DNA from: Escherichia coli
GTDB lineage: Bacteria; Pseudomonadota; Gammaproteobacteria; Enterobacterales; Enterobacteriaceae
Length of the DNA: 64,000 nucleotides
Assembly: GCF_003334335.1 (NCBI RefSeq)
Contig: NZ_QOWQ01000004.1
Reading direction: 5' to 3' (one strand)
Below the pieces are notes generated by a model that worked only from the letters and a program-made list of their open reading frames with translations, ran no database searches and was not told the origin of the DNA. How positions within the stretch are numbered: position 1 is the stretch's first letter; each line of letters starts with the position of its first letter. Below are positions 1 to 51,683 of the stretch, piece by piece. Position numbers and translations under genes: made by a program.

Positions 1-17
1 CATTTGACAGGCACATT

Positions 18-4147: not shown

Positions 4148-4182
4148 TTTGCACCTCAAAAAAGAGTGGCAAAGGACTTGAG

Positions 4183-4275
4183 AAGGAGCCTCAAATCCCT
4201 TCGCCGGCGTTATCCGGATCAGGTTCGACGGGTATTTTCTCAGCGCACGCGTACGCGTGGCACCCCGTTGAGAAC
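4183..4275 (-). promoter_or_regulatory. TPP (THI-box) riboswitch in thiBPQ leader
   Basis: On minus strand: GGGGTGCCACGCG...CTGAGAAAATACCCGTCGAACCTGATCCGGATAACGCCGGCGAAGGGA, matching conserved TPP aptamer elements (CUGAGA, ACCUGAUC, GGAUAAUGCC-like, GAAGGGA); boundaries approximate. Confidence 0.75.
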
Positions 4276-4310
4276 GGCGTTAGTGTAGTGATTTTGTTAT
4301 CAACCAGCAA

Positions 4311-6033: not shown

Positions 6034-6260
6034 GATGAAGCAAGGGGGTGCCCCATGCGTCAGTTTTATCAGCACTATTTTACCGCGACAGCGAAGTTGT
6101 GCTGGTTGCGTTGGTTAAGCGTCCCACAACGATTAACCATGCTTGAAGGACTGATGCAGTGGGATGACCGCAATTCTGAAAGTTGACTTGCCTGCATCAT
6201 GTGTGACTGAGTATTGGTGTAAAATCACCCGCCAGCAGATTATACCTGCTGGTTTTTTTT
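6034..6260 (+). ncRNA. sgrS: SgrS small RNA (dual-function: base-pairing RNA that also encodes SgrT)
   Basis: Divergent from sgrR; contains the sgrT ORF; 3' stem-loop CCAGCAGATTATACCTGCTGG followed by T8 ending at 6260; 5' end approximate. Confidence 0.75.
6055..6186 (+). CDS. sgrT: small protein SgrT (43 aa)
   Basis: Internal Met of ORF 5887..6186: MRQFYQHYFTATAKLCWLRWLSVPQRLTMLEGLMQWDDRNSES. Confidence 0.7.
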   Translation: MRQFYQHYFTATAKLCWLRWLSVPQRLTMLEGLMQWDDRNSES

Positions 6261-9533: not shown

Positions 9534-12196
<2,663 letters not shown>

Positions 12197-12244
12197 GGTT
12201 TGGGTCCTTGTCTCTTTTAGAGCGCCTCGCTTCGGGCATAAAAA

Positions 12245-12275
12245 AACCCGCGCAATGGCGCGGGTTTTTTGTTTG
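12245..12275 (-). terminator. leu operon attenuator (intrinsic terminator)
   Basis: Minus strand AAACCCGCGCCATTGCGCGGGTTTTTTT: GC stem-loop plus T-run immediately downstream of leuL. Confidence 0.7.
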
Positions 12276-12288
12276 ACTGCGTGCTGGC

Positions 12289-12375
12289 TTAATGCTGGAT
12301 GCCGCTCACTCGTCTACCGCGCAAAGAAGATGCGTTTAGTAGTAGTAGACCGATAAAGCGAACGATGTGAGTCAT
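12289..12375 (-). CDS. leuL: leu operon leader peptide (28 aa, four consecutive Leu codons)
   Basis: Minus-strand [31 protein letters not shown] with CTA CTA CTA CTA run, followed by attenuator hairpin. Confidence 0.8.
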
Positions 12376-13034
12376 TAAATCAGCTCCAGATGAATGCGAT
12401 ATGCTTTTAGAGTTACTGGATACAAAAACGGATGTCAACCCTGACGCAATAAAAACGTCCCGCCAGCGTGAGTTCTGCATCCGTAAAATTAGCTAATTGT
12501 GCTGCGGTGGTTAAAGTAAGCGATATTAATTTCTGCTTAACTACCGACGCTTTTCATCGGTTGACATATTTCAGCATAAATTTTTGCATCTAATCAACGA
12601 GGAAAAAGGGGACAAAATGCACGCGTTGCAAAACCTATCCTGATGATTTGTATTGAATTATATGTTTTGCGATTTTTTTTGATATTGATTTGGTGAATAT
12701 TATTGATCAATTAATGTTAAGAATTAATGCATTAAATATATAAATTAATTATTAAATAAGCACATTTAATCCATTTTGTAGATGATTGAGTATTCGCGGT
12801 AGTTATGATTAGATTGTTTTCGCAACAAAAACATTATGGATTATTATGCTGTGGTAAATGACTCATTCCACGGCAATGGATTCTGTTTTTATCAGAACCC
12901 GTATCTTTATGTTTTCCGAATTTTACTCATTTTGCTTTTTCTTATTTTATATGCATGATAAATCATATTCTTCAGGATTATTTCTCTGCATTCCAATAAG
13001 GGAAAGGGAGTTAAGTGTGACAGTGGAGTTAAGT

Positions 13035-32652: not shown

Positions 32653-33911
32653 TCAAGGCGACGGACAGAAAACTGGTAGTAGGACTGGAGATTGGTACCG
32701 CGAAGGTTGCCGCTTTAGTAGGGGAAGTTCTGCCCGACGGTATGGTCAATATCATTGGCGTGGGCAGCTGCCCGTCGCGTGGTATGGATAAAGGCGGGGT
32801 GAACGACCTCGAATCCGTGGTCAAGTGCGTACAACGCGCCATTGACCAGGCAGAATTGATGGCAGATTGTCAGATCTCTTCGGTATATCTGGCGCTTTCT
32901 GGTAAGCACATCAGCTGCCAGAATGAAATTGGTATGGTGCCTATTTCTGAAGAAGAAGTGACGCAAGAAGATGTGGAAAACGTCGTCCATACCGCGAAAT
33001 CGGTGCGTGTGCGCGATGAGCATCGTGTGCTGCATGTGATCCCGCAAGAGTATGCGATTGACTATCAGGAAGGGATCAAGAATCCGGTAGGACTTTCGGG
33101 CGTGCGGATGCAGGCAAAAGTGCACCTGATCACATGTCACAACGATATGGCGAAAAACATCGTCAAAGCGGTTGAACGTTGTGGGCTGAAAGTTGACCAA
33201 CTGATATTTGCCGGACTGGCATCAAGTTATTCGGTATTGACGGAAGATGAACGTGAACTGGGTGTCTGCGTCGTCGATATCGGTGGTGGTACAATGGATA
33301 TCGCCGTTTATACCGGTGGGGCATTGCGCCACACTAAGGTAATTCCTTATGCTGGCAATGTCGTGACCAGTGATATCGCTTACGCCTTTGGCACGCCGCC
33401 AAGCGACGCCGAAGCGATTAAAGTTCGCCACGGTTGTGCGCTGGGTTCCATCGTTGGAAAAGATGAGAGCGTGGAAGTGCCGAGCGTAGGTGGTCGTCCG
33501 CCACGGAGTCTGCAACGTCAGACACTGGCAGAGGTGATCGAGCCGCGCTATACCGAGCTGCTCAACCTGGTCAACGAAGAGATATTGCAGTTGCAGGAAA
33601 AGCTTCGCCAACAAGGGGTTAAACATCACCTGGCGGCAGGCATTGTATTAACCGGTGGCGCAGCGCAGATCGAAGGTCTTGCAGCCTGTGCTCAGCGCGT
33701 GTTTCATACGCAAGTGCGTATCGGCGCGCCGCTGAACATTACCGGTTTAACGGATTATGCTCAGGAGCCGTATTATTCGACGGCGGTGGGATTGCTTCAC
33801 TATGGGAAAGAGTCACATCTTAACGGTGAAGCTGAAGTAGAAAAACGTGTTACAGCATCAGTTGGCTCGTGGATCAAGCGACTCAATAGTTGGCTGCGAA
33901 AAGAGTTTTAA
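32649..33911 (+). CDS. ftsA: cell division protein FtsA (actin-like ATPase)
   Basis: 420-aa ORF; actin/Hsp70 fold; ATGA overlap with ftsQ. Confidence 0.95.
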
Positions 33912-33971
33912 TTTTTATGAGGCCGACGATGATTACGGCCTCAGGCGACAGGCACAAATCGGAGAGAAACT

Positions 33972-35123
33972 ATGTTTGAACCAATGGAACTTACCAATGA
34001 CGCGGTGATTAAAGTCATCGGCGTCGGCGGCGGCGGCGGTAATGCTGTTGAACACATGGTGCGCGAGCGCATTGAAGGTGTTGAATTCTTCGCGGTAAAT
34101 ACCGATGCACAAGCGCTGCGTAAAACAGCGGTTGGACAGACGATTCAAATCGGTAGCGGTATCACCAAAGGACTGGGCGCTGGCGCTAATCCAGAAGTTG
34201 GCCGCAATGCGGCTGATGAGGATCGCGATGCATTGCGTGCGGCGCTGGAAGGTGCAGACATGGTCTTTATTGCTGCGGGTATGGGTGGTGGTACCGGTAC
34301 AGGTGCAGCACCAGTCGTCGCTGAAGTGGCAAAAGATTTGGGTATCCTGACCGTTGCTGTCGTCACTAAGCCTTTCAACTTTGAAGGCAAGAAGCGTATG
34401 GCATTCGCGGAGCAGGGGATCACTGAACTGTCCAAGCATGTGGACTCTCTGATCACTATCCCGAACGACAAACTGCTGAAAGTTCTGGGCCGCGGTATCT
34501 CCCTGCTGGATGCGTTTGGCGCAGCGAACGATGTACTGAAAGGCGCTGTGCAAGGTATCGCTGAACTGATTACTCGTCCGGGTTTGATGAACGTGGACTT
34601 TGCAGACGTACGCACCGTAATGTCTGAGATGGGCTACGCAATGATGGGTTCTGGCGTGGCGAGCGGTGAAGACCGTGCGGAAGAAGCTGCTGAAATGGCT
34701 ATCTCTTCTCCGCTGCTGGAAGATATCGACCTGTCTGGCGCGCGCGGCGTGCTGGTTAACATCACGGCGGGCTTCGACCTGCGTCTGGATGAGTTCGAAA
34801 CGGTAGGTAACACCATCCGTGCATTTGCTTCCGACAACGCGACTGTGGTTATCGGTACTTCTCTTGACCCGGATATGAATGACGAGCTGCGCGTAACCGT
34901 TGTTGCGACAGGTATCGGCATGGACAAACGTCCTGAAATCACTCTGGTGACCAATAAGCAGGTTCAGCAGCCAGTGATGGATCGCTACCAGCAGCATGGG
35001 ATGGCTCCGCTGACCCAGGAGCAGAAGCCGGTTGCTAAAGTCGTGAATGACAATGCGCCGCAAACTGCGAAAGAGCCGGATTATCTGGATATCCCAGCAT
35101 TCCTGCGTAAGCAAGCTGATTAA
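33972..35123 (+). CDS. ftsZ: cell division GTPase FtsZ
   Basis: 383-aa ORF; tubulin signature [12 protein letters not shown]; C-terminal [14 protein letters not shown]. Confidence 0.97.
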
Positions 35124-36945: not shown

Positions 36946-39651
36946 ATGCTAATCAAATTGTTAACTAAAGTTTTCGGTAGTCGTAACGATCGCACCCTGC
37001 GCCGGATGCGCAAAGTGGTCAACATCATCAATGCCATGGAACCGGAGATGGAAAAACTCTCCGACGAAGAACTGAAAGGGAAAACCGCAGAGTTTCGTGC
37101 ACGTCTGGAAAAAGGCGAAGTGCTGGAAAATCTGATCCCGGAAGCTTTCGCCGTGGTACGTGAGGCAAGTAAGCGCGTCTTTGGTATGCGTCACTTCGAC
37201 GTTCAGTTACTCGGCGGTATGGTTCTTAACGAACGCTGCATCGCCGAAATGCGTACCGGTGAAGGAAAAACCCTGACCGCAACGCTGCCTGCTTACCTGA
37301 ACGCACTAACCGGTAAAGGCGTGCACGTAGTTACCGTCAACGACTACCTGGCGCAACGTGACGCCGAAAACAACCGTCCGCTGTTTGAATTCCTTGGCCT
37401 GACTGTCGGTATCAACCTGCCGGGCATGCCAGCACCGGCAAAGCGCGAAGCTTACGCAGCTGACATCACTTACGGTACGAACAACGAATACGGCTTTGAC
37501 TACCTGCGCGACAACATGGCGTTCAGCCCTGAAGAACGTGTACAGCGTAAACTGCACTATGCGCTGGTGGACGAAGTGGACTCCATCCTGATCGATGAAG
37601 CGCGTACACCGCTGATCATTTCCGGCCCGGCAGAAGACAGCTCGGAAATGTATAAACGCGTGAATAAAATTATTCCGCACCTGATCCGTCAGGAAAAAGA
37701 AGACTCCGAAACCTTCCAGGGCGAAGGCCACTTCTCGGTGGACGAAAAATCTCGCCAGGTGAACCTGACCGAACGTGGTCTGGTGCTGATTGAAGAACTG
37801 CTGGTGAAAGAGGGCATCATGGATGAAGGGGAGTCTCTGTACTCTCCGGCCAACATCATGCTGATGCACCACGTAACGGCGGCGCTGCGCGCTCATGCGC
37901 TGTTTACCCGTGACGTCGACTACATCGTTAAAGATGGTGAAGTTATCATCGTTGACGAACACACCGGTCGTACCATGCAGGGCCGTCGCTGGTCCGATGG
38001 TCTGCACCAGGCTGTGGAAGCGAAAGAAGGTGTGCAGATCCAGAACGAAAACCAAACGCTGGCTTCGATCACCTTCCAGAACTACTTCCGTCTGTATGAA
38101 AAACTGGCGGGGATGACCGGTACTGCTGATACCGAAGCTTTCGAATTTAGCTCAATCTACAAGCTGGATACCGTCGTTGTTCCGACCAACCGTCCAATGA
38201 TTCGTAAAGATCTGCCGGACCTGGTCTACATGACTGAAGCGGAAAAAATTCAGGCGATCATTGAAGATATCAAAGAACGTACTGCGAAAGGCCAGCCGGT
38301 GCTGGTGGGTACTATCTCCATCGAAAAATCGGAGCTGGTGTCAAACGAACTGACCAAAGCCGGTATTAAGCACAACGTCCTGAACGCCAAATTCCACGCC
38401 AACGAAGCGGCGATTGTTGCTCAGGCAGGTTATCCGGCTGCGGTGACTATCGCGACCAATATGGCGGGTCGTGGTACAGATATTGTGCTCGGTGGTAGCT
38501 GGCAGGCAGAAGTTGCCGCGCTGGAAAATCCGACCGCAGAGCAAATTGAAAAAATTAAAGCCGACTGGCAGGTACGTCACGATGCGGTACTGGAAGCAGG
38601 TGGCCTGCATATCATCGGTACCGAGCGTCACGAATCCCGTCGTATCGATAACCAGTTGCGCGGTCGTTCTGGTCGTCAGGGGGATGCTGGTTCTTCCCGT
38701 TTCTACCTGTCGATGGAAGATGCGCTGATGCGTATTTTTGCTTCCGACCGAGTATCCGGCATGATGCGTAAACTGGGTATGAAGCCAGGCGAAGCCATTG
38801 AACACCCGTGGGTGACTAAAGCGATTGCCAACGCCCAGCGTAAAGTTGAAAGCCGTAACTTCGACATTCGTAAGCAACTGCTGGAATATGATGACGTGGC
38901 TAACGATCAGCGTCGCGCCATTTACTCCCAGCGTAACGAACTGTTGGATGTCAGCGATGTGAGCGAAACCATTAACAGCATTCGTGAAGATGTGTTCAAA
39001 GCGACCATTGATGCCTACATTCCACCACAGTCGCTGGAAGAAATGTGGGATATTCCGGGGCTGCAGGAACGTCTGAAGAACGATTTCGACCTCGATTTGC
39101 CAATTGCCGAGTGGCTGGATAAAGAACCAGAACTGCATGAAGAGACGCTGCGTGAGCGCATTCTGGCGCAGTCCATCGAAGTGTATCAGCGTAAAGAAGA
39201 AGTGGTTGGTGCTGAGATGATGCGTCACTTCGAGAAAGGCGTCATGCTGCAAACGCTTGACTCCCTGTGGAAAGAGCACCTGGCAGCGATGGACTATCTG
39301 CGTCAGGGTATCCACCTGCGTGGCTACGCACAGAAAGATCCGAAGCAGGAATACAAACGTGAATCGTTCTCCATGTTTGCAGCGATGCTGGAGTCGTTGA
39401 AATATGAAGTTATCAGTACGCTGAGCAAAGTTCAGGTACGTATGCCTGAAGAGGTTGAGGAGCTGGAACAACAGCGTCGTATGGAAGCCGAGCGTTTAGC
39501 GCAAATGCAGCAGCTTAGCCATCAGGATGACGACTCTGCAGCCGCAGCTGCACTGGCGGCGCAAACCGGAGAGCGCAAAGTAGGACGTAACGATCCTTGC
39601 CCGTGCGGTTCTGGTAAAAAATACAAGCAGTGCCATGGCCGCCTGCAATAA
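36946..39651 (+). CDS. secA: preprotein translocase ATPase SecA
   Basis: 901-aa ORF; Walker A MRTGEGKT; C-terminal zinc motif [14 protein letters not shown]. Confidence 0.97.
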
Positions 39652-39672
39652 AAGCTAACTGTTGAAGTAAAA

Positions 39673-39696
39673 GGCGCAGGATTCTGCGCCTTTTTT
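39673..39696 (+). terminator. candidate intrinsic terminator/attenuating hairpin between secA and mutT
   Basis: GGCGCAGGATTCTGCGCC followed by TTTTTT. Confidence 0.55.

Positions 39697-40096: not shown

Positions 40097-40100
<4 letters not shown>
39711..40100 (+). CDS. mutT: 8-oxo-dGTP diphosphatase (Nudix)
   Basis: 129-aa ORF; Nudix box GGKIEMGETPEQAVVRELQEEVGI. Confidence 0.9.
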
Positions 40101-40300
<200 letters not shown>

Positions 40301-51523: not shown

Positions 51524-51683
51524 TGATTTTTCTGGTAAAAATTATCCAGAAGATGTTGTAAATCAAGCGCATATAAAAGCGCGGCAACTAAACGTAGAAC
51601 CTGTCTTATTGAGCTTTCCGGCGAGAGTTCAATGGGACAGGTTCCAGAAAACTCAACGTTATTAGATAGATAAGGAATAACCC

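Follow-up and report, generated by a model that had tools for sequence, protein, structure and literature searches.

The leu leader of Escherichia coli: leuL as the ribosome-mediated transcription attenuator of the leuABCD operon

The DNA analysed here is a stretch of 64,000 nucleotides from Escherichia coli, referred to in its entirety as the window. On its minus strand lies the leucine biosynthesis operon, and directly upstream of this operon, in the same orientation as expected of an attenuator, is a leader element at 12389..12240. The first gene of the operon, leuA (2-isopropylmalate synthase), is an open reading frame (ORF) of 523 codons (10625..12196, minus strand), the product of which matches the NCBIfam model NF002084 with 1047 bits against a cut-off of 748. 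In the annotation of one identical E. coli genome, the gene order around the leader is cra, ilvIH, leuO (divergent) and leuL-leuA-leuB-leuC-leuD-setA. An Rfam search of the whole window (cmscan) gave a full-length, untruncated match of the element to the Leu_leader family (RF00512; 145.8 bits, E = 4.5 × 10−32, model positions 1–148 of 148), which was the sole amino-acid leader model to exceed the gathering score here (50 bits). In a permissive Rfam scan, models of the Thr, Phe and Trp leaders produced weak, sub-threshold matches at the same place through the common terminator architecture. The short peptide encoded within the element matches the equivalog model NF007397, ‘leu operon leader peptide’, with 80.9 bits (curated cut-off, 59 bits; residues 1–28 against profile positions 1–28). 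Together, the matches to RF00512, NF007397 and NF002084 bear out the original prediction, made from the letters alone, that the architecture of leu attenuation lies upstream of leuA. The span that it gave, 12245–12375, was right to within a few bases, except that 12245 falls inside the U-run and that the Rfam element is larger.

A 291-nt stretch of the leader region, which extends from upstream of the promoter into leuA, is 100% identical to positions 83,523–83,813 of the reference strain MG1655, in which leuL is b0075 (83,622–83,708). This region was matched in 5,400 of 5,426 complete E. coli genomes, in one copy each and with 95–100% identity, and all 5,400 genomes carry annotations of both leuL and leuA. 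There was no match in 26 of the 5,426 genomes; our guess is that these may be laboratory strains with a deletion of the ara–leu region. Other Rfam models that matched the window above threshold were those for the SgrS sRNA (228.8 bits), the TPP riboswitch, tp2, STnc40 and two tandem naRNA4 copies, listed at 6034–6260 (+), 4178–4277 (−), 51568–51681 (−), 39627–39696 (+) and 40100–40293 (+); these are consistent with a K-12-like region of E. coli between approximately 71 and 135 kb. The window also contains a match to RF02797, ‘Plasmid-encoded Shigella sRNA A’ (PssrA), at 33891–33980 on the plus strand (105.5 bits). The matched stretch, at the ftsA–ftsZ junction, is chromosomal and occurs in 5,425 of the 5,426 E. 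coli genomes, and the name of the family is thus misleading for this locus.

Upstream of the element on the minus strand, the hexamer TTGACA (12438..12433) is likely to be the −35 box of the leu promoter, and it is followed after 17 nt by a weak −10 hexamer, TAACTC (12415..12410). From the position annotated in MG1655 (83,735), we take transcription to start at about 12402, which would be approximately 27 nt upstream of the leuL start codon. A promoter and terminator consensus scanner applied to 12100–12900 called neither the leu promoter nor the terminator of the leu attenuator, the former because TAACTC is a poor match to the −10 consensus and the latter because the A–U extension of the stem absorbs the U-run. 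ORF calling also yielded a 63-amino-acid frame that begins at an upstream ATG and is in frame with leuL (12480..12289, minus strand). We do not consider it a genuine product, since translation would begin upstream of the TTGACA hexamer, at a start that no genome annotation uses; the upstream ATG also precedes the start of the Rfam model, and the frame is likely to be an artefact of ORF calling.

The leuL ORF itself comprises 28 codons and a TAA stop codon (12375..12289, minus strand; ATG at 12375..12373, TAA at 12291..12289), as is also annotated in RefSeq, and translation of 12375..12286 reproduces exactly the peptide that had been quoted for a 28-codon minus-strand leader frame. A Shine–Dalgarno motif, GGAG (12387..12384), stands 8 nt upstream of the start codon; GGAG or GGGG occupies this place in most of 47 full-length Enterobacterales leaders (alignment A3, drawn from among the matches listed in the scan described below). 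Codons 10–13 (12348..12337) are the four tandem CTA leucine codons that had been pointed out, and the sequence CTACTACTACTA at this run is unique in the window on both strands. CTA was also said to be rare, and it is the rarest of the six leucine codons in the genes of the window (72 of 1,824 leucine codons, or 3.9%, in 38 long ORFs that total 17,359 codons). Given this codon usage, the probability that four of four leucine codons are CTA is about 2.4 × 10−6, and none of the four leucine runs inside the long ORFs of the window contains CTA. The locus therefore has the translated part of an attenuator, namely a Shine–Dalgarno motif, a start codon and a short ORF with tandem codons for the end product, leucine.

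An intrinsic terminator, the attenuator proper, begins 18 nt past the leuL stop codon (12270..12240, minus strand). Its two arms, AAAAAACCCGCGC and GCGCGGGUUUUUU, form a 13-bp stem closed by the loop CAUU; the hairpin AAAAAACCCGCGC-CAUU-GCGCGGGUUUUUU occupies 12270..12241 and one further U follows at 12240, so that with its full seven-U run (12246..12240) the terminator reads AAAAAACCCGCGC-CAUU-GCGCGGGUUUUUUU. With a calculated free energy of −20.2 kcal/mol, this is the GC-rich hairpin and T-run that the original prediction had placed after the ORF. The leuA start codon is 44 nt downstream of the U-run on the same strand, and the terminator accordingly sits between leader ORF and leuA, where an attenuator has it. 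The hairpin (12240–12271) is flanked by an A-run as well as a T-run and can also be read as a hairpin with a U-run on the plus strand, where it gives a sub-threshold Leu_leader match of 33.9 bits. It is formally a bidirectional terminator, and no plus-strand gene runs into it.

A hairpin of this kind might be a constitutive or insulating terminator next to a leucine-rich ORF that is there by chance, with leucine control exerted at initiation through Lrp, LeuO/H-NS or ppGpp. Its great stability, its formation in every case at equilibrium and its A-run and T-run flanks, readable as a terminator on the plus strand too, would suit that reading. It leaves unexplained, however, why the four consecutive codons are the rarest for leucine (P ≈ 2.4 × 10−6), why leuA is preceded in more than 100 species by short ORFs that share a leucine run and otherwise encode unrelated peptides, and why the three-state logic of the competing helices is conserved. 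It is refuted, moreover, by published codon replacements from CUA to UUA (PMC8384417) and from CUA to CUG (as given by PMC1183508), and we regard it as extremely unlikely. We return to the hairpin as the terminator of an attenuator, for which the question is what it competes with.

A long protector and the terminator make up the fold of the free leader, which has −56 kcal/mol (z = −4.8 relative to 200 shuffles). The core of the protector hairpin, which is part of the fold of the untranslated leader and shows conserved pairing, spans 12350..12312 (minus strand) and contains a helix between GUCUACU (12350..12344), which overlaps leucine codons 1 and 2 of the run, and GGUAGAC (12318..12312), as well as a second helix between CGCA (12334..12331) and UGCG (12323..12320). 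The two helices together hold five of the six bases of GCGCGG (12322..12317, minus strand), the 5′ strand of the antiterminator (or preemptor), which lies within codons Leu18-Arg19-Gly20. The 3′ strand of the antiterminator, CCGCGC (12263..12258, minus strand), is the G+C core of the 5′ arm of the terminator and is common to both competing helices.

At equilibrium the terminator always wins (−31.7 kcal/mol, versus −19.9 kcal/mol for a forced antiterminator), and the switch therefore has to be kinetic, beyond what folding programs show. A plain RNAfold run on 12200..12400 had been proposed as a way to display mutually exclusive pairings; it does not do so, as the equilibrium fold consists of protector and terminator only. 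The terminator hairpin is present in every full-length fold, whether or not a ribosome footprint is masked, as is to be expected, since the outcome of attenuation is settled ahead of the synthesis of its 3′ arm. Full-leader minimum-free-energy folds, masked or not, consequently cannot test the switch, and we replaced them with folds of the nascent transcript. The antiterminator of a ribosome-mediated attenuator is not revealed by an equilibrium fold.

In the nascent-transcript folds, the transcript ended at the terminator loop and pairing was restricted to the part that the ribosome had yet to reach, with an assumed ribosome footprint from −15 to +12..16 relative to the A site. Earlier folds with the ribosome on leucine codons 3 and 4 contained long-range helices from behind to ahead of the ribosome; such pairing across the ribosome is physically doubtful, and these cases were refolded with the RNA ahead only. 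Whichever of the four leucine codons occupied the A site, the GCGCGG:CCGCGC helix formed with a probability of 0.93–1.0, and it was absent both from the untranslated nascent leader and when the ribosome was at the stop codon. In the three states (stalled, untranslated and at stop), 6, 0 and 0 of 7 core bases were sequestered, a pattern that was matched by only 7 of 1,000 dinucleotide shuffles. A ribosome on the leucine codons covers the 5′ strands of both protector helices, and GCGCGG is thereby freed. The antiterminator taken alone was not significant when, in this single sequence, the bases lying between the edge of the ribosome and the terminator arm were shuffled, with at least 6 of 7 core bases paired upstream as the criterion: 285 of 1,000 mononucleotide and 155 of 1,000 dinucleotide shuffles matched it. 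A partner in one sequence is thus weak evidence, because the G+C-rich arm readily finds one. For one sequence, the mere existence of an alternative pairing has little discriminating power, and it is the conditioning on ribosome position and the comparison across species that make the case. According to these models, the antiterminator would be exclusive with the terminator and available only on stalling at the control codons, as in an attenuator.

In Firmicutes, T-box control of leucine biosynthesis genes is common, and the leader is highly structured (z = −4.8). Both observations would fit a leader in which read-through is set by a factor other than the ribosome, such as a metabolite riboswitch, a T-box-like response to uncharged tRNA, an RNA-binding protein or Rho. 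Across 12100..12600, a permissive Rfam scan (E up to 1) returned no riboswitch or T-box match, with only the amino-acid leader families that share the terminator appearing; a T-box leader was rejected as a candidate, as no T-box covariance model matched in this interval. The leader has a Shine–Dalgarno motif and an ORF, its leucine codons lie exactly in the protector strand and its terminator is a canonical intrinsic one, all of which speak against such a factor. Ribosome profiling places ribosomes on the CUA codons (PMC8384417), and the codon-replacement experiments (PMC8384417; Carter 1986, in the account of PMC1183508) contradict non-ribosomal control. We give this explanation next to no weight and continue with the ribosome-mediated attenuator.

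To place the helices in a comparative context, we scanned one genome per species with the pattern CTACTNCTNCTN followed by a LeuA motif 145–175 nt downstream, leaving terminator and antiterminator unconstrained. The scan found at least 120 loci and, among the matches listed, nearly all had a short ORF holding the leucine run. The 49 distinct Enterobacterales-type leaders among them were examined by the stalled-ribosome nascent fold, and in 49 of 49 (among the matches listed) a (G)CGCGG(U) segment 23–27 nt after the first leucine codon pairs with the terminator arm.

We then made an unfitted MAFFT alignment of 67 gamma-proteobacterial leaders from among the matches listed (alignment A1). Each of the six core antiterminator pairs is formed in between 57 of 58 and 67 of 67 of these sequences, and sliding the register by 1–3 columns lowers the pairing from 80% to 19–60%. 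The changes in the antiterminator pairs of this alignment comprise GC-to-AU in 5 leaders, G–U in 9 and CG-to-UA in 1. Within the Enterobacterales the antiterminator core is invariant among the matches listed, and the covariation is contributed by a small number of outgroup lineages (Alteromonadales, Oceanimonas/Zobellella and Aeromonas), and therefore from few independent events. The terminator is 93.8% paired over the 67 leaders, with CG-to-UA changes in 13 of these listed matches. The original prediction had named the lack of any alternative pairing able to sequester the terminator stem as the finding that would overturn it; such a pairing exists in GCGCGG:CCGCGC, which is conditional on ribosome position in the nascent folds and conserved with compensatory changes.

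In alignment A3, the two inner helices of the protector are 96.4% and 96.8% paired, with compensatory UA-to-CG changes in 10 of the 47 listed leaders, and those farther out in the E. coli fold are only 65–70% paired in the relatives among the matches listed. RNAalifold applied to the same 47 Enterobacterales leaders (among the matches listed) did not recover the outer protector helices and returned only the terminator and one inner helix. The aligned sequences support the inner protector helices and, only weakly, the outer ones.

Outside the Enterobacterales, the leuA leaders of Aeromonas, Alteromonadales, Vibrionaceae and Burkholderiales resemble that of E. coli in having a short ORF with at least four tandem CTN leucine codons and a G+C-rich intrinsic terminator ahead of leuA; in the gamma-proteobacterial ones, an upstream segment is complementary to the 5′ arm of the terminator and covaries with it. 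They differ from E. coli in that their peptides are unrelated outside the leucine run and have 15–21 codons. Leader peptides with leucine runs are clade-specific across the more than 120 species matched (for example, loci L078:5584–5780, L095, L012, L042, L057 and L009), with the forms MxIAAPLLLLSLIATSRAGSL in Aeromonas, ..LLLLAARLHG in Alteromonadales, ..LALLLLSPNGRSW in Comamonadaceae and ..SRGLLLLIRL in Rhodobacterales. For the distant beta- and alpha-proteobacterial leaders, the number of arm bases paired does not discriminate, given a high shuffle background (mean of 5–7 bases paired).

In Rhodobacterales and other alpha-proteobacterial leaders (L002, L029, L031, L080, L110 and L119), the leucine run is at the C terminus of an ORF of 20–35 codons, and a crude search that needed at least four U residues found, for most alpha-proteobacterial loci, no hairpin with a U-run between the ORF and leuA. 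The terminator of these leaders may be atypical, their control may be different or the four-U detection limit may be the cause. Single matches, among those listed, came from Planctomycetota, Verrucomicrobiales, Cytophagales, Nitrospirales and Atopobium. These may be due to chance, with approximately 12 chance matches expected over 100,000 genomes; at the planctomycete locus (L078), an ORF is accompanied by a terminator and by a complementary segment upstream.

The LeuL peptide is fairly conserved outside the leucine run across the Enterobacterales (among the matches listed). Such conservation could reflect a function in trans, either of the 28-amino-acid peptide or of the terminated leader RNA (about 160 nt), in addition to the attenuator in cis. 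The terminated RNA is abundant, with an RNA-seq density that is 29-fold higher over leuL than over leuA (PMC8384417), and there is a precedent in the trp attenuator of Sinorhizobium, for the products of which, rnTrpL and peTrpL, a trans function has been reported (PMC6614838 and PMC7298713). The invariant Arg-Gly of the Enterobacterales peptides (among the matches listed), however, corresponds to codons in the antiterminator strand CGCGG(U), and Asn-Ala to codons in a protector strand. As these residues coincide with the RNA strands, their conservation suggests constraints on the RNA rather than a function of the peptide, and most of the conserved peptide positions are accounted for in this way. 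Outside the Enterobacterales the peptides are unrelated apart from the leucine run (among the matches listed), and the leuL literature cited here contains no trans phenotype. We consider an additional trans role very unlikely, and the attenuator in cis remains the reading that we follow.

Experiments on MG1655, in which the leader has the same sequence as in the window, have been published. Ribosomes pause at the four CUA codons of leuL (PMC8384417). In the same study, the RNA-seq density from leuL to leuA dropped 29-fold in the control and 4-fold with induced stalling, and a leuL-leuA′-nLuc reporter rose 11.5-fold with CUA compared with 2.7-fold with UUA codons. Termination in vivo and an increase in read-through that depends on the control codons when charged tRNA-Leu is limiting are hence published for the identical sequence (PMC8384417), a paper that credits the mechanism to Wessler and Calvo 1981. 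Within leuL, RNA polymerase pauses once it has passed the protector hairpin, and NusA raises the half-life of this pause (about 28 s) 1.7-fold; the study that describes this names the protector as such and as a putative pause hairpin, and compensatory hairpin mutants failed to restore the pausing (PMC9291695).

Comparison with MG1655 leuL (b0075) detected no difference: peptide, control codons, protector, antiterminator, terminator and gene context are alike. The leu leader of Salmonella typhimurium is also similar, with 28 codons, four tandem leucine codons and the logic of protector, preemptor and terminator, and its peptide probably differs from that of E. coli at several positions outside the leucine run. 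In work of the Calvo laboratory (Carter 1986 and Bartkus 1991, as cited in PMC1183508 and PMC9291695), the polymerase likewise pauses once past the protector, and the control codons include the rare CUA. By the description in PMC1183508, CUA makes up three of the control codons in Salmonella, compared with four here. Replacement of CUA with CUG in the Salmonella leader lowered the sensitivity to leucine limitation (Carter 1986, as relayed by PMC1183508). The latter paper presents leu as the paradigmatic case of rare control codons, and thr as using major codons. The trpL, hisL, thrL, pheL and ilvL leaders belong to the same mechanism class as leuL, with a leader ORF enriched in codons for the end product, exclusive antiterminator and terminator helices, and transcription coupled to translation through a pause, but they are other sequence families and their control codons differ in number and identity.

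We conclude, with near certainty, that the element at 12389..12240 is leuL and that it attenuates transcription of the E. coli leuABCD operon by a ribosome-mediated mechanism; nothing that we found contradicts this model. It is already known in every respect and is the same as the copy in the reference strain MG1655. The leu attenuator was described around 1980. The element is curated in Rfam, NCBIfam and RefSeq, and the MG1655 copy is the one used in the published experiments. Its value here is that of a positive control, in which a textbook regulatory element was recognized from raw sequence with the right coordinates, peptide and mechanism.

The proposed mechanism would run as follows. A ribosome would load onto the leader and translate the 28-codon ORF before RNA polymerase had left it. 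With charged tRNA-Leu in good supply, the ribosome would clear the four rare CUA codons and arrive at the stop codon. The protector would then form in its wake, as it would in a leader that is not translated, and hold GCGCGG, so that the 13-bp terminator with its U-run could form and transcription would end some 44 nt short of leuA. If charged tRNA-Leu runs short, the ribosome would stall with a CUA codon in the A site, its footprint would cover the 5′ half of the protector and GCGCGG (12322..12317) would be left free to pair with CCGCGC (12263..12258) as the latter emerges, ahead of the synthesis of the 3′ arm of the terminator. With the antiterminator in place, no terminator would form, and the polymerase would read through into leuABCD. 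As the control codons are the rarest of the leucine codons, the switch would be expected to respond early to a falling supply of leucine.
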